Shown here one piece after another: positions 801 through 55,800 of a DNA stretch of 64,000 bases. The notes beneath the pieces were generated by a model. It was not told the origin of the DNA. It saw only the letters and a list, made by a program, of their open reading frames with translations, and did no database searches. Origin of the DNA: Azolla caroliniana (taxonomy: Eukaryota; Plantae; Polypodiophyta); contig JBHGNT010000004.1 of assembly GCA_043228905.1 (NCBI GenBank), positions 14,198,001-14,262,000 on the forward strand. Reading direction: 5' to 3'. The position numbers and the translations under genes are program-made. Position 1 is the first letter of the stretch. The number at the start of each line of letters is the position of its first letter.

Positions 801-1127
801 TTTGAACTGTCGAGACTTGGGAATAGGAGAGAGAAAGATGTGATGACGATAGAAGGTATATATATATATAGAGAGAGAGAGACAACACTAGAAATGGAAA
901 GAGAGATTATATTATAAGAGAGCAAGGATTACAAAGAGTAGGCTAAGGGGCTATAAACTGGTGTTGAACCGAATGAGTTGTGATGAATGAATAGACACCT
1001 ATTTATAGGTCCTTATGGAGTATTCTAGAATGTTCTTGAATATTTTCGATATTTATGATATTTAATATAATCATGGAATATCCTAGAATGTTCTAGAATA
1101 CTCTCAATATCTTGTAATAACTAATAA

Positions 1128-1199
1128 TGCATTTTGTATAATGGTTAAAGTTCTAACATATAGACCAAGACGTCTTGGGCTCGAATCCTTGTAAGGCCA
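1128..1199 (+). other. tRNA-like (Pol III A/B box) segment inside LTR #1, antisense to the element
   Basis: B-box-like GGCTCGAATCC at 1178-1188, weak A-box TGTATAATGG near 1135, ending GGCCA at 1199. No intact cloverleaf. Confidence 0.5.
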
Positions 1200-1219
1200 A
1201 AATGTATGTCTTCATGACA

Positions 1220-2071: not shown

Positions 2072-3468
2072 ATGGCAAACACTCATAAAGCCGCCACAAA
2101 GTTCGGGAGTATGATTGATAATGAGCCAAGATCACCAACAAATCTTGATTCCAATGCAATAGACAAAATGCTTATGAGTCACTTGATTTCTCTTCAAAAA
2201 ACCATAAACAAGCAAGGTGAAGAGATCAGGACGTTAATGAAAGAGAATGCTAAGATCTAGATTGTTGTCATTAAGAATGAAAGTCTTAAGAAAGTGGTTG
2301 CAAAATTTGAAGATAAGATTCAAGAATGTGAGAAAGATTCCTTCGAAACAAATGAGCACCTTAACCAGATTGGGTTAAAGGAAGCATTAAAAGAAGAAAA
2401 ATTGGACACGATGAGGCGGGATGTAAGTGAGATGAAAAATCTATGTACAACGAAGTGATGGGCCAATGTATGTGATATCAAACTCATCGACTATACATGT
2501 GATGCATCAAGAGAAGAATATAGAAAGCATAGATGTCCGAGAATTGAAAGAACGTGAATGACGATCACAGAACATTGTCGTCCTTGGGATTAAAGAAGAG
2601 AGTATGGAAACATCCGCATACCTCAGAAAGGCCACTGGTGATTTTTTTAGCATGCATTATGGGATGTTGGATGTGAATGTATATGGGGCACACCGAGTTG
2701 GGAATATATGGTGGTACTCACTCCGAAGAAAGGCCTATTGTATGCACAATGATACAAAGCGGCAGATCATACTAAAAAATAGTTGGGTATAGCTCAAAGG
2801 TATGCAATGCTTTGTGAATGAAGATCATACTATCTAAAAAACAAAATGTCGGACGTAAAGCATATGAAGAAAGATTGAAAAAAAAGGTTAAGGATGTGCC
2901 TAAAGATGGAAATGTAGGCAAATAGGGACACGTGACCTATGAGCCTAACCCACGTCTTTTACGACTATGCTTTTGGAATTACAATGGATACCCATGGAAT
3001 GCAGGATTTGGCATAGATGAGTTCACCAATGACTTGGATATCACACTTCTTGTTGAAACATGGGAGCATGATACTCCAAGGATTCAAGGTTTATGAAACT
3101 ACAATGTACACTCTCTGATATGGGAGAAAAATCCAAGACAATGAAGAGGACAAGGAGGGGTGACATGTTTGATTAAGAAGGAAATAGAGAAATATGTGTC
3201 AATCATAAAAAATGATGAACATAAATTCTACATATGGCTCAAAATAGAAACACCTAATGATTTTCCCACTTTCGTAGTTGGATGTTACATTCCTCATCAG
3301 GATTCTAACTTTTATTCTTGTTTGGATTCTAACTTTGATTCTTTTGCCAATCTAGAAGATGATATTGCTTATTTCAAATCCAAAGGGGAAGTTATTGTCT
3401 TTGGTGACATGAATGCTTGTACAAGAAGTTTCCAACTTGATTCACAAGAATCTTTCATGCCACATATC
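2072..3468 (+). mobile_element. Degraded LINE 5' part: coiled-coil ORF1 and APE endonuclease of ORF2, interrupted at 3469
   Basis: K/E-rich heptad ORF fragments and NIVVLGIKE. APE motifs WNYNG, LLVETW, GQGGV, GCYIP and FGDMNA, with in-frame stops. Confidence 0.75.
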
Positions 3469-3957
3469 TGTCATAGACAAGATGCCACATAGAATGGCGG
3501 GGGTTGAACCCGTGACCTTCTGGTTTTATTGGGCAACCTTGCCAATTGAGCTACATCAATTTGTGCTTTATTGTACTGTATAAGATTCAACTTATTTTAT
3601 TATAGATTGATCACTAGAAATTTCAAGAACCTTCTAGAGAATGCATCTTCATGCGCTCTCTAGAAGTTTCCATGCACTCTCTAGAAGTCTTCTAGCTTTC
3701 ATGCATACCTCCACATTCTTGTATAAATATTGGGGTGCACCTTGATTACAATCAAGGTGAACAACACCAGTTACGAAAGCATATACAATTCTTGTTTATT
3801 TTTCTATTCTCTCTCTCTTGCTTGTTCTCTTGTCTAAGCTTTGTCTCCCGCTATCTCTTAATATTGAGCCTCGTCTACTTGTCCTTGACAATCTTGTGGT
3901 CTTGCTTATGCTCTCACTCTCTCTTAGTACTTAGCCTCATTCCACCCATTTGTGACA
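3469..3957 (+). repeat. 5' LTR of Tcn1-like element #2
   Basis: TGTCA...TGACA inverted termini, TATAAATA at 3722 and a CT-rich U5. The left end breaks a LINE endonuclease frame. Confidence 0.8.
3492..3560 (-). other. tRNA-like (Pol III A/B box) segment inside LTR #2, antisense to the element
   Basis: The minus strand reads GATG-TAGCTCAATTGG-CAAGG...GAAGGTCACG-GGTTCAACCCC-CGCCATT: consensus A box, B box and a CGGG/CCCG T-stem. Confidence 0.7.
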
Positions 3958-5901
3958 GTTCCTTCACCTTCCCATTTTCTGAGCCTCAGCATGTCGGATC
4001 TTACATCAAAGAAAAAAACAACTCTCCGATGGAACTCGAAGAAAAAAACAACTCTCCTCCTACATCAACAAATGTTCTACCTATAGAGCATAGTTCCTCA
4101 TCTAGGCTTTCTCCAACTCCTCCCCATCCCACTACAGTATGGAGCCCAAGATTAGTTTACCTGACAAGTTCGATGGCACGAGGAAGCATTTATGAGGGTT
4201 CATAAATCAGATGAACCTTATTATCAAACTAGAGCCTCGATGGTATGCGGATGATTTTCGTCAAGTTGGTCTCACCAGGACCCTTCTGTCCGGAGCTGCA
4301 CAAGCCTAGTTTGTACCATTGGTCGAAACTTCATCACCACTTCTACAAAATTTTCCTGCCTTTCTGGCAACATTTGGGGATTATGACTAACACCGAACTA
4401 CCATCACCAAACTCTATTCATTACATCAAGGTATGCATCTGGTATTTGTTTATGCCTCTGAATTTAGACAATTAGCATGTGATGTTCAGTGAGATGGCCA
4501 AGCTCTGTGCGACCATTTTCGTCGGGGCCTTCGAAGCAAGATTACAAATTTACTAAACTTTCCAGAGCGTACGTCATTGTCGCAAGCCATCACGCAAGAA
4601 ATTAGTTGTGACAATCAGTTGTTACAGCTTCGTAAAAAAGAACAAGCAACTTTAAGGTGGAAACCCTTTTGAAGATCTTCTCCATCGTCATCGTACGAAG
4701 ACCCCGTGCTGATGGAAATTGATCGAGCTCGCGCCCCGCCACTCACTGAGGTTGAACGGAGGTATCACCGAACCAATAAACTATGTTTATATTGTTGTGC
4801 ATCCACCCATCTAATTCGTTTTTGCCCAATCAAGAATAACCAATGACAAATATCTACAAACAATATGACAAGATGGCCCCAACAACCGGAAAACGACGGT
4901 GTCCAACTACAGTAGGAGCCATGTGGTCGGACAATCTGCATTCGTGTGGCTCCCATAGTTCAGCTACATCGACAAAAGATTTCTTCTTTCCAGTAAGCAT
5001 CCATGTCAAGTCAATTTCAATTAGGTCCTTTGCACTTCTCGATTCTGGGGAAACAATGTGATTTATGGACGAAAGGTTCGTTCGTAAACACAAATTTCCG
5101 GTTGTCCAATTGGCCAAGCCAATCCGAGTGGAAGTTATTGATGGACGCATGCTTTCTTCGGGAGCCGTCACCGAGGCATTAACATTTTTTATTATCACTT
5201 CACCGCGACATTCAGTTATCCTTGGTTTGTCTTGGCTGAAGGCACATAATTCACTTGTTGATTACTTTCTCCCAAACTAGCTCGGAGATGCAAGCAATAT
5301 CTCATGTTGCTGCAGGTGCTCACCCTCCCATTAATGCAAGAATCAACTCCAAGGCGAATTCTCACATCCCAATCACAAAAAGGAAAATAGTGCATAATGT
5401 CTCTGCGTCAAGCAATCCAATGAGGACAGCTATTGACTCACTATTGTCCAAATATGAAGACTTCAGGGACATGTTTGAGAAAAAGAATGCTTATCACTTG
5501 CCTGAGCATCGACGTTACAACTGTGTGATCGATCTGCAAGAAGGTGTCGGTCCTCCCTTTGGCCCAATTTATGGGTTGTCGGAACCAAAACTCCAAGCAC
5601 TCCAAACTGATCTCGATGAGAACCTTGAAAAGGGTTTTATTCAACCCTCAAAATTACCAGTAGGAGCTCCTATTTTGTTCGTGAAAAAGAAAGATGGCTC
5701 CTTACGCCTTTGCGTTGACTATCGGGGTCTAAATTAGATTATTGTTTGCAACGGCTACCCACTGTCTCTCATCCCAAAGCTGTTGGATCGATTCCAGACT
5801 GGAAAAATCTTCTCTAAGATTGACCTACGGGGAGGAGCATACAATCTGGTATGAATCAAATCTGGAGATGAATGAAAAACCGCCTTTAGAACGTGCTACG
5901 G

Positions 5902-6716
5902 TGTTGTGTCAAAGCACGTCACGTATAAGAGCTTGGCGTGTCTAGGTGGAACCACTGGAGTTTTGAACCAGGAGAGTGGAAATAAGAAGATGAAAGAGAA
6001 GAGTGGGAAGTCGAGCCGGAAGTATCTCAATAGTCACAAGTGGTTTGCAGCCCGACCCGCGAAGACAAAAAACCTTATATCGTTCCACCTACGTAACCAA
6101 ATTAATTGTGCAAACACAAATTGGAAATCCCTCTGGAAGAGCTTTCCAACAAGCTATAGAACGTAAAAGACAGACGTCATAATTGAGAGTTAAGAAGAAA
6201 ATACCGTACAACGCTACTCCTCAAACACAGACGAAGAAGAAATGCCAAAATAGGAAATTCACTATTTCTTCGAGAGAAAACCCTTTACAAAATAGGACTC
6301 TTTGATTGTTCCCCCCCCCCCTCCATGACAGACGCCCTCCCCTCTTATACTAAAGTGATGTCTTTAATGTAGGCCACGTGGCACACACCTAGAGAAGCTT
6401 GTGCATGTGCGCGATATAAAGCATGTGGACCATGTGGCACACATGTAGAGAAACTTTGCATGTGCGTTATATGGTGCACATGAAATACATTACATGGTTT
6501 TGACTACACAACATTTGTTCCAGAGTAATGCAAATAAATCCCTAAGAACAATAATACTAAAGAACTTTGAGTCTAGAATGTAAATCAATTCCAATGAGTT
6601 GAATCAGGTGGATCTCCAAGGAGTGTTGGGTCACCGAACCAAGTTGAGATGCGTGGTTGTAATTGATGCAAGTGTGGAATCATGGTTGCACCAATCGGTC
6701 GTATCCCTTTACGACA
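5902..6716 (-). repeat. 3' LTR of Trp-gypsy 1
   Basis: Direct repeat of 14218-15030 with many transitions; TG...CA ends. Confidence 0.92.
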
Positions 6717-8317
6717 TGCACCCCCTCCTAACCTGCACATCCTCCGGTATGTACCAAGTGGAGAAAATTCAACCAAAGTCTTCTTTCCTTTTATTTGAAC
6801 ATTTGATGATGCATGCCAATCATCTTCATTCAATTCCGGAATCGACATGAGAGACATCTTCTCCACTTCAAACTTCTCGTTTACTTTCTCTTCTAGACGA
6901 GTATCATGTGATGAAACTGTCGTTACCGCTTCTAATTGGATACTTGTAGTTGCCACGTCATGGACCACCTCTTCTTCAACATCTTCTTCCCAATTCAAAT
7001 TAGCTTCCACGGATCGTTCATCCTGCAAAATGTCAGGAACAAGAGAGGCTCTTTGTTTAAAGAGTTTAATTCGTTTACCAGCAATCGGATTTCGAAGAAG
7101 AGTTCCATCAAATTCTGACAAGATATATGTTCCATTTTGCCGGACTACTACCACTCGATATGGCCCAAACCATCGATGAGAGAATTTTCAAATAGATTTG
7201 TGTTGATGCTCAAGGCTACTATCAAACACAAAAACCCAATCTCCTTTTTCAATGGGAATATTCCGAACTCGATGTCTCTTGTCAAATCGATCCTTATTCT
7301 TCAATCAAACTTCTTGTTGTTTCCTGGCAGCTTCAGCTATAGCCTCCAACCTATTCTCTAATTGCCGAACTTGAATAGCCAACAAATCTTCACGTTCCCT
7401 CTGATCTTCCCAACGTAAAACTCCCCAAGTGGGAATCATCCACTCCGTAGGTATAATAGGCTTTTGACCAAAAAGTAGTTTCGATGGCATAAATCCCGTA
7501 ATAGAGTTGTGAGTGCATCTATCAGCCCAGAGAGCATAAGGAAGCATGCTAGGCCACATAGAAATTTGGCCATCACATGCTTTGACCAAAGCTTTCACAA
7601 TCGGACCATTGCCCCTTCCCACTTTACCATTTCCCTCAGGATTATATGCAATAGTCAAAGTCAATCGGATCCCGAATCTTTGGAAGAACATTCGAGCCTC
7701 ATCTGAATCTAGCTCCCCTCGATGTGTTACAATTTGCCCAACATTACCATATCTACAAATTACATCCTCCAATAAAAACTTTAGAACGGCCCGATGCAGA
7801 CTTGTTTCGGAGAGGTCTTCCTTCCACTTGGTTGGACAAATCCTCTCGAGCCAGAACCAAATATTTCATTTGATTTCGACCAGAGGGCATATGAACTATA
7901 TCCACCATCCACTTATAATGCAACACAGGTGAGTACATCGGATGTAGCTCATCTCTCACCCTATAATCAGAATACATTTGACATTCAATGCATGATTCCA
8001 CATACCTTTGGATGTCTGCATACATTCCCTTCCACCAATACTGATCCTTAATCTTCGAAAATGTGTTGACCACTCCTTTATGTCCAGCCCAATGACTATC
8101 ATGAAAATCAGAAATAATCTTATCTTTCTAAACTTGTAAACCGATAGCTCGAGTTGGAGGATCCTTAACTTTCTTTGCAACTCTCCAAAGATATCCATCC
8201 TTCAAGAGAAACCTATAAGCGTTCTTCCTGAATAGCCGAAAATCATTTGGTGTCTAATCAGGGCTTCCTTCTTGTGCTTGTAGGAATTTCCCGATTTGCA
8301 ATAGCTCTCCTTCATAT

Positions 8318-10295
8318 TGTAAAATGCCTCTAAATTCTCCTCATTTTCCATTTCATCTGAATGTATTTATACACCATGGTAATACATTCCAAGATCCATT
8401 CGGTTATCTTAGCACACTTCTATTTACTTACTTCTAACTAACCCTTTACTAACTATAGCCTAACTAACTAACCCAAGGTCTAACCCCCTAACCTTAGTTA
8501 TAGCTACTTGGGTTAGGTGAGAGCTTTTTCCTGTGGTTTTACCACATGACCCCACAATTCCCCCCTTCGAAAAAATCAGAGCCTGTTGACTGTGTCTGAT
8601 GGAGTCTTTGCTCTTTTACTGTGGGAGCTACCGTTGTCGCGTTGTTATGGCAGAACGCGTCGCGCTTGCTCGTGTGCGATGGCGGCTCTACGTCGTCTTG
8701 CTTGTTCGTGTGTGATGGAGGCTCTGCGTCGTCTTGCTTGTTCATCTGTGATGGCGGCTCTGCGTCGTCTTGTTGGTTGGTTGCGACCGAAGGGTTTCCG
8801 GAGTCCTCTTCGCAGGGGTCATCATGGTGAGTTTCCTCCTCATGGGCTGATTTAGTTGTGGATGGGAGTAGATATGGCTTCATCCGGATCACGTGCGCAT
8901 AGGTAATCCGTCCATTAGCATCTCGACGGAGAGAATAGGTGTTGGCCCTCATTGAACGGATGACCGTAAAAGGGCCAATCCATCGATGCATCATTGATTC
9001 ACTAAGTCCTTGTCGCCGGATTGGAAAATAGACTAGGACCTTTTCGCCGATTGCATATTCTACCAGCTGACAGCCCTTTTCATAGCACCATTTTTGTCGT
9101 GCTTGAGCCAATTGCAGATTCTTGTGTATGCTCGTCCGTAAGATAGGTTGGACCTGTTGCAAGTGCAACCACCAATCCATTGCATCGGTTCGAGTATGTT
9201 TTTTGGGCAGATCCACCTTGATGTCGGGGGGTAAACAAGGGTCTCTTCCATATAGTGCTCTAAAAGGACTGATTCGAGTCGAGGCCTGCACCGAAGTATT
9301 ATACGCATGTGTGATGAATGGTAGGATCAAGTCCCACGTTGTGTGTAGTTGATCGATGAATGCGGTAAGTTGTTGTTTAATCGTCTTGTTCATCCGTTCT
9401 GTCAATCCATTTGTTTGGGGATGATATGGGGAGGTAAAAATTTGTTGAATGCCTAATTGTGTGGCTAATGCTTGCAATACCTCTCCGCTAAATTGTGGGC
9501 CTTGATCTGACAGGATGCGAGCTGGGCAACCATGTGGGAAAATGATCCACTCCATCAACTTTGTTGCTATGGTGACAACTCGTGCATCTGGAATTGCGGC
9601 AGTTTCGATCCATCGCGTCAAGTATTCCGATATGACTAAGATATACCTGTTTCCTGCCTGGGATTCGGGAAAAGGGCCGATGATATCCCATCCTATTAAT
9701 TCAAAGGGTTCAGAAACAGTAATAGGTTCGAGTAAGCCGTCATTGGAATGGGGTGGCTTAATTTGTTGACATGAGTGACATTGTTTGATGTAGGTTGCGA
9801 TTGTTGTATGCATTTGCGGCCAATAATATCGGAGACGGATCTTGTCCAACACCTTGTGGAATCCGAGGTGGCCAGACATCGGGTGATCGTGAAAAAATTG
9901 CATATATAAATTCCTCAAGCTTTGTGGTATCTAGATTCGTGGCTCTTTTCCTGTTTGTATAAAGTATACGACATTATTTTGCAACTGGAAATGGTTGTGT
10001 ACCTTGTTGCTTGTGGTCGATTGGATGTCATGGGTGTTTTGTCGTATTTGTTCGTCGGCTTGTTGTAGGGCTGCTATCTGGGCCATCGTTGTGGGTAATT
10101 GGACTACTGTAGGGTTGACTTGAACACATTGTGTTTCTACTTTATCTTGGCACACTTCTATTTACTTACTTCTAACTAACCCTTTACTAACTATAGCCTA
10201 ACTAACTAACCCAAGGTCTAACCCCCTAACCCTGGTTATAGCTACTTGGGTTAGGTGAGGGGTTTTATCCACTAGTTTTACCACGTGACCCCACA
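8318..10295 (-). mobile_element. Internally deleted Ty3/gypsy element retaining only integrase
   Basis: 3' LTR at 8318-8556 with a PPT (GAAGGGGGG); partial 5' LTR at about 10142-10295. ATAT TSD (8314-8317 / 10296-10299) restores host EEEYEGE. Confidence 0.9.
8539..9918 (-). CDS. Gypsy integrase (HHCC, DDE, GPF motif) with a 12-aa repeat tail
   Basis: 459-aa open frame: HDHPMSGH..CHSC, WDIIGP, SDQGPQF, YHPQTNGLTER, WIGPF; (K/Q)QDDAEPPSxxx three times. Fragment of a deleted pol. Confidence 0.8.
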   Translation of the reverse strand: MRNLYMQFFHDHPMSGHLGFHKVLDKIRLRYYWPQMHTTIATYIKQCHSCQQIKPPHSNDGLLEPITVSEPFELIGWDIIGPFPESQAGNRYILVISEYLTRWIETAAIPDARVVTIATKLMEWIIFPHGCPARILSDQGPQFSGEVLQALATQLGIQQIFTSPYHPQTNGLTERMNKTIKQQLTAFIDQLHTTWDLILPFITHAYNTSVQASTRISPFRALYGRDPCLPPDIKVDLPKKHTRTDAMDWWLHLQQVQPILRTSIHKNLQLAQARQKWCYEKGCQLVEYAIGEKVLVYFPIRRQGLSESMMHRWIGPFTVIRSMRANTYSLRRDANGRITYAHVIRMKPYLLPSTTKSAHEEETHHDDPCEEDSGNPSVATNQQDDAEPPSQMNKQDDAEPPSHTNKQDDVEPPSHTSKRDAFCHNNATTVAPTVKEQRLHQTQSTGSDFFEGGNCGVMW

Positions 10296-13200
10296 ATATT
10301 CCTCCTCTCTAAATTCAGGCACCTGCAAACCAATCCCATTACAAATGAATCCATTATCAAAATCATCCTCTTCCTCCAGAGAAAATGGCTCTAGAATAGT
10401 CCGTGCTCGGGACAACATATCAACCATAACATTGGTTTTCCCTGTAACATGTCGGATCTCTAGGTTAAATGTTTTAATATAGGCAATCCATCTCAGCATG
10501 GATATATCTATAGAAGAGCATCTTGAAATCATTCCAAGGATCGACAGAGAATCCGTCTCTATAACCACTTCCGATCCAATCAAATAATCCTTGTCTACTT
10601 TAATCGCAGAAACTATGCCCCACAACTCTCTCTTTATTTGAGCATACATTCTTTGTTGATCATGTAAAATCTTTACTCCAAACCGAATAGCATATTGATC
10701 TCCAGTTTCATCCTCTTGATTAATAACCCATCCGATTCTAGTCGGACTTGCATCTACAGTCACAAAGATAGGTCGACCTTGCTCATATATAGGTAGTCGC
10801 AAGGCTGGTGCAGATGACAAAAGTATCGTAATCTTCTTCATGGCCAATGTATGCTCCTCCTCCCATATAAACCTTTTTCCTTTCCGTAATAGCTTATATA
10901 AGGGATTAGCAATATGTGCAAAATGTGGAATCCAAATATGATAAAAAACACATGCACCTAAAAACCGTCTTACTTCTGATGTTGACTTGCAGATATCCTC
11001 CATTGCATTGATGTCATCCACGTTGGCTGGATCAGGTTTCCGACCATAGGGGCCATACAAATGTCCCACAATCTGCACTTCAGATCTACCAAAACTTGAT
11101 TTTTCTCTAGAAATTGTCAAATGTGCCTCCTCTAAATTCTTCAATATGTCTTCACAGTTTGCTATATGATCTGAGACGAATTTCCGACATCCATCCAACC
11201 CAACTTCTTCATCCTTCTCCTCTTTTAGACATCCTTTAATCGGAATGTCATCCAAGAAAGGCATTGTTCGACGAGGAATGTGATCCCTGAGCACCTTATT
11301 CATTGCGTTCATCATATGAGCGATAGAATTAGTTGCACCTTGTGGTAAAGTACACATTCTAACCAGCCCAATAGGTCTACGCATTATAGTAATATCCCTA
11401 CTATCCAAAGCAAGCTGAAATTGATCATATCCAGAATACAAAATCAGCCATGGAGTAGATAGCTCTACCTACAAAAGATTATGTGAAGGAATCCACGACG
11501 GGACCAACTCTTGAATTCTGAATCGTTACTTTGTTAATTGGTTGGAGATCTTAATTGAACATGAGAGATCCGTTCTTTTTTGGCACTGTAAACCACCTGT
11601 TAGAATATGGAGCATTCAAAGGCTCCAAGATACCCATCTGCACCTTCTCTTTTAGCAACTCAATGAGTTTTGGAATATGAGCTCTTGGAACAAGAATTGG
11701 TTTCAAGTTCCAAGGCATATGAGGGACAATAAAGATAATCATTGGCTCCACCAGTTATGGGTCCACACAACCTATCTCTGAAGGTGAAAAAGTAAAAGCC
11801 TTACTATGTTGAGATAACATCTTTTGAAATTGGCTCTCTTCAACTTGATTAAGGAAATCACCCCCTCCTATCTAAAGCTTCCCTTGCGAAGACTCCATAA
11901 ACACATGACCAATCCTCCTCGGATCTCGTAACATTGGTTCTTCCTCTACCTTTTTTTAGCAACCATATCCATCCGATTTTGAAATGCTGCAATTTCATCA
12001 TACATATCCACTGAATTGGCTAGAATAAAAAATGACTGACCTTCATTTGAATACAAAGAATTTTCCAACTCTCCAATGGTATCCACAAAGGAAAGTTCCT
12101 GCATAATTCCTGACACCTAATCATCTGGTTCCAGAATCCGATGTTTAAGAAGCATCACCCGAATGTCTTCCACATTTACCTAACTTTTACAATTTAAATC
12201 ATCAATAGAAGAAAATGAGATTGCTCCTGTCTAAAAAACATAAACTTTATTATTTCTAGAACAATTATTCTCATACAGGGACTTTTGTTGTCCCAGACTA
12301 TTATAGCCCTGTTTGACAATAGTCCTATCTAAAAATCCTGATCAGAGGATACATGTAAACTATCCTTGTTTCTTTCATGATTAGGTCGAACTGTCTAAAA
12401 TTGTATTGTCCTTCCACCATCCATATCTTTGATCCGAGCATAGGCTGATCCATCGTCCAATACCTTGGTCTCCATGCGGACAACAACCATAAAGGGTTGC
12501 CCCAATATAACTCAATATGTGGCTGAATCTTGAATAAAGAAATGTTGAAGCATAGTAACACCCCCGATTGACACCTCCACATCTGGGCAAGCTCCAAATA
12601 ACTCCTCTGATTCCGAGTAAAGTGGCTCCTCGGAATATTATCTTCATGCTTCAGCACTTGTGTAGATCCTTCTTTCCAACCAACCTCCTTTGCAGTCATT
12701 GTTGTATCAACTGTAATTCGCTTTCTTCGCATCTTCTCCAGTAAATCATCTTGAACTTCCTCTTTGGAAACTTCCAACAAGTCTCAATGTTGCTTTAGAA
12801 CATAATTCTCAATGAAAGAGAAAGCATCTACCTCTTGTTCCAATTCAGTTCGCATCCGGAATGTTGGAGATGACTTCTTGGATACTTGTATAGGGTTTGG
12901 TTCAGCCTTTTGCATGTCCAAATTTTGCTTTTCGGATGGAGAACGAAAATCAGCCCTCTTTAGAACTCGTTCACGATCCAACTCTTCCTCTCTTCTCCTC
13001 TTCTCCTCTACCATCACATCATAATTTGTGGGAAAAGGTGAATCACTCCAACCAGTCATTTGACAACCATCTTCAATAAGAACAATTTGGATAGTTGGAT
13101 CTTGCTTGGGGAATTCAATTAGTCGAATAGCAGCCAAAGTAGAATGGAAAATAGCTTGTGCATGTCGAAGCTCTTCTTCCTCCAAGAGCTTTTTCATTCC

Positions 13201-14197
13201 TCCTCGCCCAAAATTTGTCTTTAGTGGTTGACGAGTCATGGATGAGTGGATCAACCAATCCTTGTAGAATATGAGGTTCTTCTGCATCGCTTCCTAATGC
13301 TCCGCACACTCCGATCTTCAAGCTCCAAACTGTCACACCATAAGCATCGAAAATCCCTAGTCGGAAGAGTTCGTTGCACTTGTGGCTAATGTTGCACCTT
13401 CGACATGGAAGAAATCTTCCACTCCATGAATTTCTTCACTAGGTCATCTACGTCACTTGGTTGTGGTTTCTCCATAGATGCCTCAATCCCTGTTCCTGTC
13501 TTCAAAGAGAAGGTTAGAGTAGCATTTCTAGGTCCCTTCAAGCCCAACCATGTTCTTCTTTTCTCACATCAAAGGCAGATGGACCAAATTCGGCTCCAGT
13601 CCTCCTCTAAACCTGTTTCAGTTTCAATTGATTCCATAAGTTTTCCTAGCTCTACCCTATCTGCATCGGGAACCGAGCGAAGGAAGAGAACCACCTTCTT
13701 TGGTTCAAGCAAAGTTTTCTCCTGAACTGAGAGTTGTCGGAACTTTGCTTCAAAATTAGTAAGGGTCTCTAGAACTAACCCATGCTTCTTGTCCAACTCC
13801 ACCCAAGCTTCAAATGCCCGCCAAGTCATCTTTGTAGAATCAACATAATTAAAAACACCGAGCAAATCACGACGGAATCCCTCCCATTCAACATCTTATG
13901 TTTGAAGCTCTTCTATGATCGGAAGAACATCGGCAGCTACCACACGATGGAAGTTGGATTTCTTCAAATCAGAGGGAATATTGCGATGTAACATCTCTGC
14001 ACGAACACCTGCAAAAATCGGGTCACATACTTTCCAGTGAATGGACCTAACTTCTCTAATACCCCATCCACAACTCGATCTAGGTTTGGACTCCTCTCCC
14101 TCCTTGTGAGAATAGGTTCTAGAATTGATTGAAGTTGTATTGCATCCATGTTCGAAGATGTAAAATCCCAAAGAACTCACTCTCCTTGCCGCCCGTT

Positions 14198-14215
14198 TTC
14201 ACGTCAGGTTCACCA
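14198..14215 (-). promoter_or_regulatory. Primer binding site, tRNA-Trp
   Basis: TGGTGAACCTGACGTGAA, 2 nt from the LTR; 17/18 complementary to the plant tRNA-Trp 3' end (TTCACGTCGGGTTCACCA, recalled sequence). Confidence 0.8.
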
Positions 14216-14217
14216 CA

Positions 14218-15030
14218 TGTCATGTTGAAGCACATCGCATATAAGAGCTTGGCGTGTCCGGGCAGAACCACTGGAATTCTGAACCAGGAGAGTGGAAATA
14301 AGAAGATGAAAGAGAAGAGTGGGAAGTTGAGCCGGAAGTATCTCAATAGTCACGATTGGTTTGCAGCCCTACCCGTGAAGATAAAAAACCTTATATCGTT
14401 CCACCTACTTAACCAAATTAAGTGTGCAAACAAAGATTGGAAAGCCCTCTGGAAGAGCTTTCCAACGAGCTATAGAATGTTGAAGACAGACGTCACAATT
14501 GAGAGTTATGAAGAAAATACCATACAACGCTACTCATTAAACGCAGACGAAGAAGAAATGCCAAAATAGGAAATTCACTATTTCTTCGAGAGAAAACCCT
14601 TTACAAAATAGGACTCTTTGATTGTTCCCCCCCCTCCATGACAGAAGTCCTCCCCTCTTATACCAAATTGATGTCTTTACATGTAGCCCACGTGGCACAC
14701 ACCTAGAGAAGCTTGTGCATGTGTGCGATATAAAGCATGTGGGCCATGTGGCACACATGTAGAGAAACTTTGCATGTGCATTATATGGTGCACATGAAAT
14801 ACATTACATGGTTTTGACTACACAACATTTGTTCCCAAATAATGCAAATAAATCCCTATGAACAGTAATACTAAAGAAGTTTGAGTCTAGAATGTAAATC
14901 AACTCCAATGAGTCGAATCAGGTGGATCTCCAAGGAGTGTTGGGTGACCGAACCAAGTTGAGATGTGTGGTTGTAGTTGAGGCAAGTGTGGTATCGTGGT
15001 GGCACCAATCGGTCATATCCCTTTACGACA
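14218..15030 (-). repeat. 5' LTR of Trp-gypsy 1
   Basis: Direct repeat of 5902-6716, adjacent to the PBS. Confidence 0.92.
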
Positions 15031-16169
15031 ACGGTCATTTCGATTATAAGGTAATGCCTTTCAGCCTCACTAATGCTCCTGCAATATTTCAACATATGAT
15101 GAATGACATCTTCTGAGAATATCTAGATCACTTTGTTGTGACCTATCTAGATGATATCTTGGTCTTCTCTTCCAACATCAAGGAGCATACTCTACATGTC
15201 AGGTTAGTCCTCGCCAAAACTTTGCGAGCACAAACTCTATGATAAAAGTGAAAAATGCGAATTTGATCGTACTTCTGTAAAGTTTCTTGGGTAAGTCATT
15301 TTGACACAGGGAATTACAATGGACACATGGAAAGTCAAGACTATCCAAGAGTGGGTATGAGATGTGCAATCATTCCTTGGTTTTGCCAATTTTTATCATC
15401 GCTTGATCAACGGATTCTTAGTGATCACACAACCTCTCATTGCTCGTACCCGCAAGGATGCCACTTTGGAATGAACAATAGCTGCCGAAAAGGCATTCGA
15501 TTTGCTGAAACGGGCCTTTACTATGGCACCAATCCTTTTACATCTTGACCCCACTAAGCCTTTCCAAGTCGAAATGGATGCTTCTGATATCGCCATTGGG
15601 GCGATCCTCTCCCAGCCAGATGAGGTCAGTGTGCTTCACCCGGTGGCTTACTACTCCCACAAATTCACAACCCTAGAAATCAACTACCCCATTTACGACA
15701 AAGAGCTTCTTGTTATTATTGCTGCTTTCTAGAATGGAGACCCTATTTAGTCGGGGCGTAACACCATATCCAAATGATTACCAATCACAAAAATCTAATA
15801 TACTTTTCTACCATACGAATCTTAAATCGTAGACAGGCGCGATGGTCAACCTTCTTAGCAGACTATGATTTTGAGATAATCTTTCGACCCGACGCTCAAC
15901 ACATGACAATTGATGTCTTAGCTCGACGGTTTGAGTTCGAGCTCACTCGGAGGATGAAGCCTATGTTCAGCAGTCCCAGAGTTTGTTAAAGCCTGACCAA
16001 TTCTACAACTTCGTGACTTGCTTGCTCCGGGATGACTCTTTATTCAAGCAAATAGCAGAAGACACTACAACTGACAAGTTCTCCACAGAGATCAAGGCAA
16101 ATATCACAAACCCCTCCCATGAACCCAAAAGACCCAATTTAGCTCGTTTTACAATTCAGGATAATCATG

Positions 16170-16240
16170 ACATGAGAAGATTCGAACCCATGACCTTATG
16201 TTACATGGGTCGAGCCCTTGCCAGTAGACTATGCATTGTA
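16170..16240 (-). other. tRNA-like (Pol III A/B box) segment inside LTR #3, antisense to the element
   Basis: The minus strand reads GCA-TAGTCTACTGG-CAAGGG...TAAGGTCATG-GGTTCGAATCT-TCTC. Confidence 0.7.
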
Positions 16241-16314
16241 ATACGAAAGATATTATTTTCATTTATTATTTCACTATAGAAAATTCATGTAGAACATTCT
16301 AGAAACCTCAGGAG

Positions 16315-17031
16315 TGTTAGGAAACAGGTCCCTCCGGATGGGAAGTGAGAAGAACAGTACTGATGAGCAAACTCGGTCGAGGCCAAAACCGGATGTGGAA
16401 GACCCAGCTACGGAAGACCCGGTGAGAACCGGATGACGAGTACCCGGCATGAGCCAGATGGTGAAGACCCGGTGAGAACCGGATGTGGAGTACTCGGCAA
16501 CGGAAGACCGGTGAGAACCGGATGACGTGTGCCTGGCAAGCGCCGGATGATGCAGGCCTAGTGAGGAGTGCTCACTGGATGAAGGGACATATTCGTAAAT
16601 ATGTTTCTAAGAGTCCATCGGGGCTATATTTGTAAATAGCTGAAAAGTCATATTAGTACAAATATGACTTAGGGCAAATAGAGATAAAGTTGTTGTCATT
16701 CTTGTTGGCACAAGATTAGAGCGTGCAACTGTGCACAGAGAGAGTGAGAGAGAGGAAGAGGTCGTTGCCTCTGTTGTAACCACCGCCTGTGGCGAAGATA
16801 GAAAGCTCGAGGTCATTGCTTCGGTGCTTTACCATTTGTACATTCTGACATAGTGATAGTTTGCAGTCTGTGGGTTGCCGTGGTTTTTTCCCTAGTTTGG
16901 GTTTTCCACGTTAACATCCTGTGTACTCTTCTCTCCATTGTGTCGTGCATTCATTCCCCGTTTTTTCTGTGTTTTGATTCTAAGCTCGGTTGTGGCCGAG
17001 CGTTGTTCATTGGGAGCGTGTGTTCATATCA
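16315..17031 (+). mobile_element. Copia solo LTR related to the LTRs of element C
   Basis: TG...CA ends and an AGGAG TSD (16310-16314 / 17032-17036). Homologous to the reverse complement of 25808-26546, including degenerate U3 tandem repeats. Confidence 0.9.
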
Positions 17032-17339
17032 AGGAGTACTCCTGAAAACACTATATAAGGAGGCACAAGGCATTATTTCGAACCAAATCGGGTCAACGCC
17101 AGTCTTAAGCCTCCTAGATACTACTGTATATTCTATTCACATAATATATATTTTTTGTTATCATCACTCTCTCTCTTTCTTTTCTTTTTTTTTGTAAATG
17201 TATGTTTATATTAAAACAACATGATAATACAAAAAAACCTTGCTATCAAAACTACGTCAAAGGGAGCGATGTTTGTATCATCACTCTCTTTCTCTCTCAA
17301 TATCTCTCTCTCTCTCTCCCTCTCTCTCTCAGTCTTTCC

Positions 17340-17915
17340 GTCTCTCGAGAGTTCTACACCTCTCTTAGTACTAATCCTCATCTTTTAGTACTAATTCCTT
17401 CTCTGTCTTAGTACTGCTCCTGACAGTTTGAACCGATTTTCCGGTCTCCTTCCTCCTCGTCCTTCTCTCTTCTTACTTCTCCTTCCCTTCATACTAATAT
17501 CTTATTCCTCTTTTCTCTAATACTATGGCGACTGTTAGCGCTCAAGAATATCAATCCATTTTCTCGGAGTTGCAATGCTTGAAAGATAAGTTTCTTGCAT
17601 TGGAACGAGAAAATCAACAACTGTTGGGTCTCTCGAGAGTTCTACACCTCTCTTAGTACTAATCCTCATCTTTTAGTACTAATTCCTTCTCTGTCTTAGT
17701 ACTGTTCTTGATAGTTTGAACCGATTTTCCGGTCTCCTTCCTCCTCGTCCTTCTCTCTTCTTACTTCTCCTTCCCTTCATACTAATATCTTATTCCTCTT
17801 TTCTCTAATACTATGGCGACTGTTAGCGCTCAAGAATATCAATCCGTTTTCTCGGAGTTGCAATGCTTGAAAGAGAAGTTTCGTGCATTGGAACAAGAAA
17901 ATCAACGGCTGTTGG
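17340..17915 (+). repeat. 288-bp tandem duplication spanning the LTR end, primer site and gag start
   Basis: 17340-17627 is repeated at 17628-17915 with a few substitutions. Confidence 0.9.
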
Positions 17916-19770
17916 GAGATCTTCAACAAATCTCCTTAGAGAACCAACAGACACAACAACAACATGAGGAATTAGCGTTACGCGTGCACAACTCGAAGCG
18001 ATCATAGTAGGGTTGCAACAACAAGGACCAAATACGCAAGGGATTCATAAAGAGCAATGTGATCACAGTTTAGAGGATTCCTTAATAAGGTATGATTAGT
18101 CATTCAAATAAATCCTTCCCTATATCCCACCGATGAATCACGAGTGTCTCTAGTACGCACGTTGTTAAGTGGCTCAGCTTTGGCATGGTTCGCTCCGTTG
18201 TTAGAAAAGGAATCTCCATTACTAAATAATTTTGAAAAGTTTATAACTGAGTTTAAAGCTTGTTTTGGAAATATTGATAGCATAAGGACAACAATCAACA
18301 AAATCCGACGATTACGTCAAGGTGACCGTCTAGCCTCCGCATACGCTGCAAATTTCCGTCTACTCGTCTCTGATATCCCCTGGGATGACCAAGCATTAAT
18401 GGAGCAATTTCGTGATGACCTACGTAACGATGTCAAGGATTTACTCTTGACCTTCTTGTTGAGATACAAGCTCAAGATTGGCCGGATCGGCTGTGCAAGC
18501 CAAGAACCGAATCGGTTTGGACCGATCAGTTAGGCCGGATCAGTGCGTAAACTAGTGTGTCAACTGGTGCACAAACCGGTATGCAACAAGAGGCCGGATC
18601 GGTGCAGAAACCGGGACGCCGTTGAACAGATATTCCGCGAGGGAATATATTTGGGAGTTAGTGTAGGAGCTCAATTATGAGCATTGAAGTACGTGTCAGT
18701 ACTTCTATCAGTTCGTAATGTGCGTCAACGTGACATGATAGTGGCTGACTACACCTCCAAGATAAAGGATATTTGTGACACCCTCGCCTCCATTGATGTG
18801 AACGTTGAGGAGGGCGAAATGGTGCAGATCTACCTCAGGGGATTGGCGTTGAAGTTCAGAGCATTCCGAACTGCTATTTGTACAAGGGAGAATACGACGT
18901 CATTTTTCAACTTGCAATCGATGTTCCTTGTAGAGGAGAATCATGTGGGTGAATCCACGAGTATGCAAGCCGACAACAAGATGGTGTACATGGAGAGAGA
19001 TTGGCGCCGTGGTCGTGACGGACGAGGCGAGTCGGCGCGCAATGGAGGCGGCCGACGGAAGCAAGGAAGAAGGCATCATGGTGATGCCGACACAAATTCC
19101 GGGGAGTCGAGGAGGTGACAAGAACCAGCAAGGGAAACACGCCACGAAATGCTGGTATTGTGGCAAGAAAGTCCACAAGGAGAATGAGTGTTGGAAGAAG
19201 TGCACCAATTCAAAGAAAACCGAATCCAGATACGGATGGATCGAGCAAGGAAATCGGCAGTGGACACACTACACTGAAGGATCCAAAAAAGTCGAAAAGG
19301 GGGCAGCCTTTGTGACAGGAAACGAAGCGAACTCGATGAAGAAGGACACCCTGAAATCGAACGAAGTGTGGTATGTTGACTCTGGAGCGTCAAACCATAT
19401 GATGGGCCATAAAGAGTGGTTCTCATATCTGGAAAAACTGGAACAACCGAGAGTAGTCGCAACAGGAGATGACACTCCGCATCCGATCGTACATGTCGGT
19501 GAAGTTCCCCTCAGCCACATCGGGCAAAAAGGAAAGCTAATGAATGTGTTACACGTGCTGACAATTACGAAGAATCTGGTGTCGGTTGGACATATCGTCG
19601 ACCAGGGGATGCAAGTCCGGTTCACGCATCTCGGGTGCTTCATCGAGGAAGAAGGCCAAGTTATTGCATAAGGGCACAGAGATGGGAGGATGTTCGTCCT
19701 CGACACCAATGACGTAGGCACCGCCACGTTCACGAAAGGGCAAAAAGTCGAGTCGGATATTGTCTTGTGG

Positions 19771-52802: not shown

Positions 52803-55800
52803 AGTCATGGAGAAAACCGTCCCCAGGCGCAAACCGTGTATAGTGTGTGTGAACCGGCCCTTACACGTGGGCACGTCCCTTGTTGTATAGTAGATAGGTA
52901 GGCACAAAGGTCAAATCCTAGGTAGCAATATTCTATAGGGGAAAATCGAGGGGTATCTCTGTCTGAAAGGACAGAGAATTAATGTGATGTAAACGGGTGA
53001 AGCGGCCTCCCTCCTTGAGCTATAAAAGAGAGGGAGACGGGGGAGAGAGGGGATCGCGCGCTAGAGGGGACGAAGTGATGTCGGACTGGGACCGAGCTCT
53101 TCTTCTCTGTCATTCTCCATAGCTTTCTTTTGCGCAGGTTCTCAAGAGGCTGATCCTGCTCCGTGGAACGCCCGTGTGCTTCTGGCAGAATCTCCATCTT
53201 GCTCTCCTGTGTGCGTGGGTGATCAGGCGCCGGCATCCATCTCGCCGACCTGGTCGGCTGTAACCATTCGAGTCGTCTGCATACATTTATATACATACGC
53301 TAGTGTACTCAACTCGTGTCTCCTGTGTTGTTGGGCCGCGTCCTCGTGCACTTCTTTGTCTATACGTGTGTGGATGTCTCTCTCTCTCTCTCTCTCTCTC
53401 CCTCTCTCTCTCTCTCTCTTATTCCTCGGTCCAAGACCCTAGTGGTCCCGCCTTGTTCTCCACGCACGCGCATAACAACGCGACATATTTGGTGAACCCG
53501 ACGTGAACAGGCAATAGAGGAGTAGAAGATGAGGGGGTCGAACCTTGCAGAAGCCATGGCTTTGGCTGTAGACCGTATAGTGAGTGCGTGCGAAGGCACC
53601 GGCGCCCTTGATAGGGCTATCGAGGCGGTTGTCGGTACGATCGGCCGATTTAGTGGGAAGGATGCCACGAGCTACTTGGCGTCCTACCGGGCTGAGATGG
53701 TAATGAGGGACATTTTGGAAGAGAGGCCTCTAGCCGGATTCCCTCGAGTGGCAATGCCGGGCATCCATACGGAGGTACTCGAGGTACGGGCCGAGAGCCG
53801 GACCTGGGAGGAGTTCAAAGGTCGGCTCCTCGAAAAATACGGGCTTGAAGATGTGCTTCGACTTTCGAAGCGGGACTTGATGGAGTGGGTGGAGACCCCC
53901 GACAAAGGAAGGAACGCGTCAGTGCTCCTCCGGGAGTTTCAGGAACGCTTCGTGCGCCTCTCGGTGCTTGACCGAACCGTTCTGGACACAAGCCGTGTCC
54001 TATTGTTTGTTAAGTCAGTTGACGAGTAGGATGGGGAGCAAGTAGGCCTCCTATTGGAGACTGATGACGGGCTGACGGCCGACTGGGCCGTGGTAAAGAG
54101 GGTCTATGGCCGTTTCGACAAACGGCGGGAATGGGTTGACAAAGGATCGACAGGGGCGGGCTTTGTCGCAGCAAGGAAGCTCGAGCCAATACCACCAGCG
54201 CGAAGGGAAGAGACCCGAGATTGGCTCGAGACCAGATCGGCTTCGACCGGCATGGTCAAGGGCTCGCCCGGGGGAGCAACTGACGCGGATGGTAAAGGAT
54301 CTCCAGATCGCCCAAGCACGGAGGGACGGTGGCGAACAGGCCCATGACCGATGACCTCTGGCTCGAAACAGGTGCATGTGGTGTGACGCGGTTGGCCACA
54401 TCCGGAAGGATTGCGGGGACTTCACCGAGGCGAAGAGAAGCAACGTGGTGTACCTGTGGAACGGTCAGGTGCACGCCAGCGAAACCCGAAGGCCCCTGGA
54501 CCTGAATGTCGGGTGAGGGGGTATGAAAAGGCTGATGGAGGAAGCGGCGGCTCGTCACGCGGAGACTGTCCGCTACTCGGCGTCAGCTGGTATTCAGGTC
54601 GGAGGTGGCGAGGCCCCGAAGACGAACAAAGCCGGGTTCTGGCCGACAATGCTAGAAGGCCTTGCCGGCGCACGACTAAGGAAAGAAGTGGCGGACCGCG
54701 CGGAAAAACGCGGAAAAACTTGGTGGAAGAAAAGACGGGCTTCGTCGAAGCCGCTTGTCAAAACTACGAGGCTCTGGTGGAGGACAAGCGGGTAGGGAAA
54801 ACCGGAGGGGCCGGGCCCTCGCAACGATATGAAACTCGGTTCGGGCAAAGGCGGAATGAGGCCAGTGTACTCGGCGCCCAGGATAATCCCAAGAAGGGCG
54901 GGTACCGGTTGGGCACAGAAATCGAAAGATCCACGGACCTACGAAAGGTCCTGGAAGAACGAATCCTCGACAGCAAGGTGGAACTGTGGCTGAGGGAAGT
55001 GCTTGGGATCGCCAAGAAGGAGTTCCACGACTCCATCGTAGACTTGGTGAAGAGGAAGAGGCTGTCGATGGAGACAGAACCGGAGAAGCCCGTGGAGATG
55101 CGGACGACGCACATAGAGGACATGGCGCTGGAAGACGAGTTGGCGGAGAGCCACTATTGGAGGCCGCACTGGGCCAGAGCGACCACGGAGACCCCCGTGA
55201 AAATCGGAGATGTTCATGAACCGATGGTGGCGTTGGTGGACAACGGTTCAGAAATCAACTTGATGTCCATGGACTTCTATAAGAAGGGGAAATGGCCGAT
55301 CCACACTAGGCACGGGTGGAAAATACAGGCAACGACACGTGCCACCAAAGAACTGCATGGAGCCTGCCCGAATGTACGAGTAAAGATCGGCGATGTCGAG
55401 ATTGACCAGCAGTTCTTCGTGCAGGAGACGTCCTCACATCCGGTTATACTAGGAGAACCGTACATCACGGTAGCACGGATGGAGACCAAGGTGTTGGACA
55501 ATGGCTCGGCCTATGCAAGGGTCAAGAGCCAGGATGGGCGTCACTCGGTCTAGTTCCTGACGGTGAGACCGAACCATGAGCGGAACCGCGAGACCCTCGG
55601 GGGCGAAAGTCGAGAGGATTTTTAGAGAGGGCTATCAAGGCATGGGGCCGCGATAGTCCGGACACTCCGGGAAAACCCCACAAGTGTACGATAGCGAAGA
55701 AGACCTGTACTATAACTAGGAAATTTTGGTTCTCCGACAACGGAGGGTGTACGATAGTCGACATTGTTGGACGGAAGAAGAAATGGGCGGAGGAGCGACT

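Follow-up and report, generated by a model that had tools for sequence, protein, structure and literature searches.

Why should the LTRs of retrotransposons carry, close to their start and antisense to the element, the two internal boxes of a tRNA promoter? The question arises from a 64,000-nucleotide stretch of Azolla caroliniana DNA (the window), in which an earlier note had described such an A-box/B-box pair near the start of three LTRs. All three pairs were confirmed at the positions first noted. With an A/B-box weight matrix built from 31 host tRNA rows, the modules of LTR families A, B and C score 24.2, 20.9 and 19.8, compared with a shuffle 99th percentile of 11.2 and, in 244 other LTR windows, a 95th percentile of 8.2 and a maximum of 15.3. 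Scanning the whole window at a threshold of 17 returned only the three modules and one weak site at 53544, and neither ARAGORN nor Rfam called a tRNA in the window. The weak site lies on the minus strand directly behind a Gypsy-element primer site, with a score of 18.6 and a spacing of 32. The features are located as follows.

808..1219, minus strand: family C LTR
1134..1188, plus strand: family C module, with the A box at 1134-1144, the B box at 1178-1188 and C at tRNA position 54
2902..3468, plus strand: broken LINE-like endonuclease frame, cut by the family A LTR (weak Pfam match, E 0.11)
3469..3957, plus strand: family A 5' LTR, 489 bp, TG...CA
3500..3510, minus strand: family A B box
3514..3518, minus strand: family A tRNA variable-loop motif (positions 44-48), conserved though outside the scoring matrix
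3542..3553, minus strand: family A A box, 12-nt type
3722..3729, plus strand: family A TATA box, the putative Pol II promoter of the LTR, 179 nt from the A box
3754..3764, plus strand: predicted 5' end of the family A transcript (self-primer), which pairs with the primer site
3958..3970, plus strand: family A self-priming site, after the LTR, with two letters different from other family A copies
3958..16162, plus strand: decayed gag-pol of element A, read from sequence, interrupted at 5902-15030 by a nested element and with LTR B at its end
16163..17425, plus strand: family B 5' LTR, with a nested LTR at 16315-17031 that has a 5-bp duplication
16178..16231, minus strand: family B module, with the B box at 16178-16188 and the A box at 16221-16231

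The TG boundary at 3469 had been said to break a LINE frame. The LINE-like frame does run to 3468 and stop at the TG, but the Pfam match of the frame is weak. LTR B carries its module as described, but its opening TG is lost and it contains nested insertions. Elsewhere in the window, the nested element at 5902-15030 (minus strand) is of Phygy type, with an ACGG duplication, a tRNA-Trp-type primer site and LTRs without a module. A 288-nt tandem duplication (17340-17916) reaches from the end of LTR B into the start of gag, and related Copia elements with 54-nt and 28-nt internal repeats are clustered in both orientations at 26000-47700.

All three LTRs are members of chromovirus families of the Tcn1 type, which are self-priming. 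Module-bearing elements contain Pfam domains for gag, protease, RT, RNase H, integrase, SH3 and chromodomain in the Gypsy domain order, with the chromodomain C-terminal and detected in families A and C and RT in family B. TG...CA LTRs, a polypurine tract and a 5-bp target duplication were all found in the Tcn1-type families. An 11-nt stretch lying 32-34 nt after the TATA box is complementary to the site that follows the 5' LTR; an exact search found this pair in 4 of 10 elements, and inspection by eye showed it in young copies of B-type and A2 as well, which bears out the earlier view that these elements need no tRNA primer. Self-priming of this layout was predicted for Tcn1 (PMC6317226, in the part of the text at hand). 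The TATA box (110-190 nt away in most families) and the self-priming layout together place the module at the 5' end of U3. As to a possible grouping with fungal Tf1/Sushi elements, the nearest named protein is from a chytrid (57%), the Atlas matches are fungal and chordate, and Tcn1-type elements separate from Galadriel-like elements in a tree built without a named Tcn1 reference. Gag, PR, RT, RH, INT, chromodomain, 5-bp TSD, self-priming and, less clearly, fungal nearest proteins are common to these families and the Tcn1 clade chromoviruses described in the accessible portions of PMC2864245 and PMC6317226; those portions, unlike our data, mention no tRNA-like LTR module. According to the same portion of PMC6317226, Tcn1- and Phygy-type elements are limited to mosses and club-mosses.

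Across the 523 Mb of genome searched, there are 1574, 2014 and 1130 first-look candidates for LTR families A, B and C. The module is present at 30/30, 30/30 and 26/26 examined loci of the three families; these counts are no independent test, because the loci were chosen by similarity. A second sample, blind to the module, was obtained with a pattern for the junction between polypurine tract and LTR (3541 matches, control 444). The 97 junctions sampled are the first listed places on one contig, and 72 of them have an integrase upstream. An antisense module with a score of at least 10 follows 71 of these 72 integrase-backed 3' LTR junctions, and 68 of 72 are above the shuffle 99th percentile; at the single exception, no LTR follows. 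Among the 25 junctions without integrase, 13 have a module, several of them in non-coding self-priming elements of ~1.7-2.2 kb, and the other 12 resemble chance matches. The LTR elements L404, L405, L406 and L410, which are non-coding and self-priming, measure ~1.7-2.3 kb and contain tandem repeats inside, retain both the antisense module and the TATA box. The coding elements with a module are 5.0-6.7 kb long, autonomous and mostly self-priming.

A strict A-AGGT-B pattern has 13,841 matches in the genome and 74 in the control. The first 30 matches, all at one chromosome end, comprise LTRs (10 of Tcn1 type, 12 from a different Gypsy lineage), SINE-like copies (3), tRNA genes (3) and two further sites. 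The orientation is antisense in every module scored, in Tcn1-type and Phygy-type LTRs alike. Long tandem arrays of tRNA genes are also found in this genome (G000:C15:13024846-13112934, C14:10491540-10545160 and C8:17796786-17823370).

The module is conserved at its boxes and has decayed elsewhere. In an alignment of 22 LTR families, partly guided by the conserved motifs themselves, column conservation is 0.96 for the B-box invariants, 0.91 for tRNA positions 44-47 and 0.90 for the A box; for reference, it is 0.93 for TATA, 0.99 for the LTR end, 0.56 between the boxes and 0.60 in the rest of U3. The LTR families are related, so these conservation counts are not independent. Two tRNA-like traits outside the matrix are also kept, T8-R9 in 23/25 families and AGGT at positions 44-47 in 19/25. 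The distance between A and B box is 35-38 nt in 21/25 families and 42-43 nt in the remaining 4 (mostly 36-37 nt in host tRNAs), and this spacing stays kept while the module lies anywhere between 6 and 63 nt from the LTR end. The cloverleaf stems of a functional tRNA gene were not found in the modules. The anticodon stem has 44/125 pairs, with chance at 39%, versus 68/75 in 15 host tRNAs, and pairing of the T stem falls outward from the box (0.96, 0.84, 0.60, 0.44, 0.36); across these stems, the host tRNAs pair at 91-100%. In young copies with LTRs 99-100% identical, the B box is kept and the 3' acceptor arm is gone, the end lying 5-10 nt past the B box. The conservation is punctate: positions 49-51 and 59 are free to vary, and A-box G10 is poorly kept and often lost, while family C has C54. 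A T4 run follows 8-236 nt from the B box in 17/20 families, yet there is no fixed Pol III terminator position, as no T4 lies within 400 nt in 3/20 families and the run is directly behind the B box in two. In family A2 (L207, L219), the B box is located within a perfect 8-bp hairpin at the extreme LTR end, out of register with the tRNA T stem.

These observations support the earlier description of a tRNA-derived head that has a fixed position in U3 and travels with the element. Three observations had been named that would speak against it, namely absence of the module from most intact copies, a TSD or tail of its own as for an independent SINE insertion, and boxes conserved no better than U3. 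We checked all three and saw none of them: both LTRs carry the module in 10/10 two-LTR elements, most of which have clear 5-bp duplications; the module has no TSD or tail of its own; and the boxes are far more conserved than the rest of U3. The observation is real, and the retention of the boxes is selected.

The earlier note overlooked that the module recurs in a second Gypsy lineage and that some relatives lack it. This second lineage is assigned to Phygy by its want of a chromodomain, its tRNA-Trp primer site and its NCGN duplications (5/7 LTR pairs), features which agree with the absent chromodomain, tRNA-Trp primer site and 4-bp NCGN duplications of the Phygy non-chromoviruses in PMC6317226 as far as its accessible text goes. 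That text mentions no U3 module for Phygy; here, an antisense U3 module is found in a subset of the Phygy-type families. It lies 113-693 nt from the LTR start and is sometimes doubled, and three LTRs (L451, L466, L469) have two antisense A/B modules ~165 nt apart. Its spacing is 35-38 nt in 16/16 modules, its anticodon stem has 33/80 pairs, and the pattern of box retention is as in the Tcn1 type. Only 1 of 10 Phygy-type 5' LTRs met by chance carries a module, a small sample that marks it as a subset trait. Since the similarity between Tcn1-type and Phygy-type modules (36.7) is barely higher than a null with the boxes kept (32.5), the sequences suggest that the two lineages likely captured the module independently; alternatively, LTRs may have been exchanged between them.

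Among relatives on metagenome contigs, L291, L293 and L298-L301 have the module behind the integrase and L302 has a weak one; at this place, L292 and L294-L297 have none. Across 71 loci with enough sequence to be scanned, eight scored at least 13 in antisense orientation, five of them where the LTR begins and three deeper inside. The module was not found in the LTRs of Galadriel-like chromoviruses of the same genome, and the B-box complement is absent by eye from the first 400 letters of the published transcript of P. patens RLG1. The Galadriel-like family (L201:860-920, L448) has a degenerate, weak A/B-like site on the sense strand in the 5' untranslated region, outside the LTR. A pattern scan of viral contigs gave four matches, in large contigs. 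The claim that all Tcn1-like LTRs open with the module thus holds for 71/72 integrase-backed junctions in this genome and fails for several relatives from other samples. The module is dispensable for many elements, as L292, L294-L297, the Galadriel-like LTRs and 9/10 chance-sampled Phygy-type 5' LTRs are without it. Module-bearing elements form two supported groups that differ in A-box length; constraining the bearers to one clade is rejected (p-AU 0.011), and with L292 added it is not (0.082). There may have been one old capture followed by losses, or two captures.

The nearest tRNA for family A is tRNA-Ile(UAU), clearly so only for copy L093 (z 4.5, versus z 2.1 for the window copy, when the boxes are fixed in the null), and one Phygy-type module is nearest to tRNA-Arg(UCU) (z 2.4); for the other modules, no parent was assigned among the 19-20 tRNA labels sampled. 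A SINE-like repeat of ~215 nt (L490-L514, e.g. G000:C1:8076089-8076294; 2617 first-look candidates) stands free between GA microsatellites; it contains two A/B modules in opposite orientation and has a short A-rich end. Some 90 nt of it match the head of family A with a score of 105-107, against a null maximum of 64.5, and the shared part begins ~13 nt before the A box, near the predicted Pol III start. That this repeat shares the head suggests that the head may be transcribed. Judging from the shared sequence, a family A-type LTR head may have founded the SINE-like family, or may have been renewed from one. We also tried C-type and Phygy-type modules as the source of the second half of the repeat and rejected them (best score 52, null up to 62).

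What, then, is the module kept for? Boxes retained while stems are lost are the pattern expected from selection on a TFIIIC DNA site. We give somewhat better than even chances to the reading that the module is a retained TFIIIC/Pol III DNA site, which would travel along as a barrier for, or modulator of, the Pol II promoter of the element. TFIIIC would bind the module, TFIIIB would be loaded onto the stretch from the A box to the TATA box, and Pol III would be directed outward, away from the Pol II promoter. Such a platform between host flank and Pol II promoter could keep the 5' LTR open against neighbouring heterochromatin, or stop read-through from the flank, and the element RNA is still predicted to come from Pol II and to be primed by its own 5' end. 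In yeast, tDNA barriers (PMC2040200) and a TFIIIC block to Pol II read-through (PMC4228148) are established, as far as the consulted sections report. As at these tDNA barriers and ETC sites, A/B boxes here would form a chromatin or transcription boundary beside Pol II units; the yeast sites are host loci, whereas these are carried by a mobile element (PMC2040200, PMC4228148, same sections). A barrier alone cannot explain the strict antisense orientation, because the fission-yeast tDNA barrier works either way round (PMC2040200, same section). In the 3' LTR, moreover, the module lies where the element's own transcription must pass and might obstruct it. TFIIIC tolerates looser spacing than the narrow range kept in most families, and the poorly kept G10, the C54 of family C and the many elements without a module speak against this reading as well.

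The strict orientation speaks for another reading, in which the Pol III product itself matters, with an antisense RNA of 70-180 nt from the 3' LTR running across the polypurine tract and damping the element (self-limiting silencing) or disturbing plus-strand priming. The T4 runs behind most B boxes and the SINE-like repeat that begins near the predicted Pol III start are in line with this, but neither terminator position nor transcript length is conserved and RNA structure is not retained. We consider a role of the product unlikely. Antisense placement in U3 is also the geometry of the 3' site of Ty3 (PMC5371799, from the available text), and U3 of the genomic RNA might pair with a host tRNA and aid packaging or strand transfer. 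The spacing equals that of host tRNAs, and runs of 11-21 nt can pair with one or other of the sampled tRNAs if G-U pairs are counted, a figure for which no null was computed. HIV-1 likewise has a tRNA-like stretch in U3-R. Against such pairing, Tcn1-type elements self-prime, the punctate conservation leaves several positions free, and tRNA-Trp, the Phygy primer, ranks only 6th to 20th of 20 labels in 14/14 modules, with at most 10 paired letters. The tRNA-complementary U3 sequence of the bipartite Ty3 primer site is a likeness to our modules, but it matches Ty3's own primer tRNA, and here the Tcn1 type has no tRNA primer and the Phygy type no match (PMC5371799, same text). We regard an RNA-level role as quite improbable.

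The module could instead be a landing pad or decoy that attracts Pol III-targeted integrases, the element's own or those of others, to the LTRs. In the first 300 nt of 84 LTRs, 4 of 12 breaks (a small count) lie upstream of the point where Pol III is predicted to start, at a distance of 6-20 nt; one of these four is a deletion, however, and the inserted sequences are unlike each other. There is no hot spot in 142 LTRs (many chosen as intact), the elements have chromodomains, and insertions in the window hit coding regions of other elements. We regard targeting as very unlikely. The module could also be a neutral, functionless relic of one or two old SINE or tRNA insertions copied into both LTRs, as the related SINE-like repeat, the relatives without a module and the unrejected tree with one old capture and loss might allow. 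This explanation is strongly disfavoured and is the least probable of all, as the boxes match TATA in conservation and the stretch between them has diverged as the rest of U3 has, the spacing is kept at varying distances from the LTR end, and the Phygy-type LTRs repeat the pattern.

If the preferred reading of a TFIIIC/Pol III site is extended to both lineages, two unrelated Gypsy lineages would each have captured a tRNA promoter, turned it outward and retained it as a Pol III insulator that moves with the element, spreading more than 10,000 TFIIIC sites through a plant genome, and one LTR head would also have founded, or been renewed from, a SINE-like family. We hold this complete account to be plausible, at somewhat less than even chances. 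If TFIIIC binds, elements that dwell in heterochromatin bring their own boundary, which would answer how such LTRs stay transcribable, and ~10^4 extra sites for a Pol III factor could lead to factor titration and effects on chromosome folding.

An antisense tRNA-type module in autonomous plant LTR elements appears to be new, and tRNA-derived LTR segments are already known from Helenus. The earlier suggestion of novelty is to be limited in this way: a literature search, whose coverage excludes most subscription papers and Repbase entries, found no antisense tRNA boxes in autonomous plant LTR elements, and LTRs derived from tRNA have been published before, for the Helenus TRIMs. In Helenus TRIMs and TRIMp3 (Kojima 2024, PMC10886601; here and below as far as its consulted parts extend), as in our elements, both LTRs contain a tRNA-derived segment with conservation centred on boxes A and B and no functional tRNA, and an origin by SINE insertion into an LTR was proposed. 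Helenus elements are non-autonomous, 311-1263 bp long and tRNA-primed, whereas the elements described here are autonomous and several times longer, and their Tcn1-type families are self-priming. The examples in the Helenus supplement are in sense orientation with a T run behind, and the element RNA was proposed to be a Pol III product; here, the module is antisense and upstream of a kept TATA box. Cassandra similarly has a small-RNA promoter in a plant LTR, but this promoter is 5S-derived, belongs to a TRIM and drives the element's own transcript, unlike the antisense tRNA-type module (PMC10886601). Kojima noted that "not a few LTRs" in Repbase have tRNA-like parts and pursued only TRIMs. Our elements contrast with the view in that paper (PMC10886601) that Pol III promoters in LTRs are confined to miniature elements.
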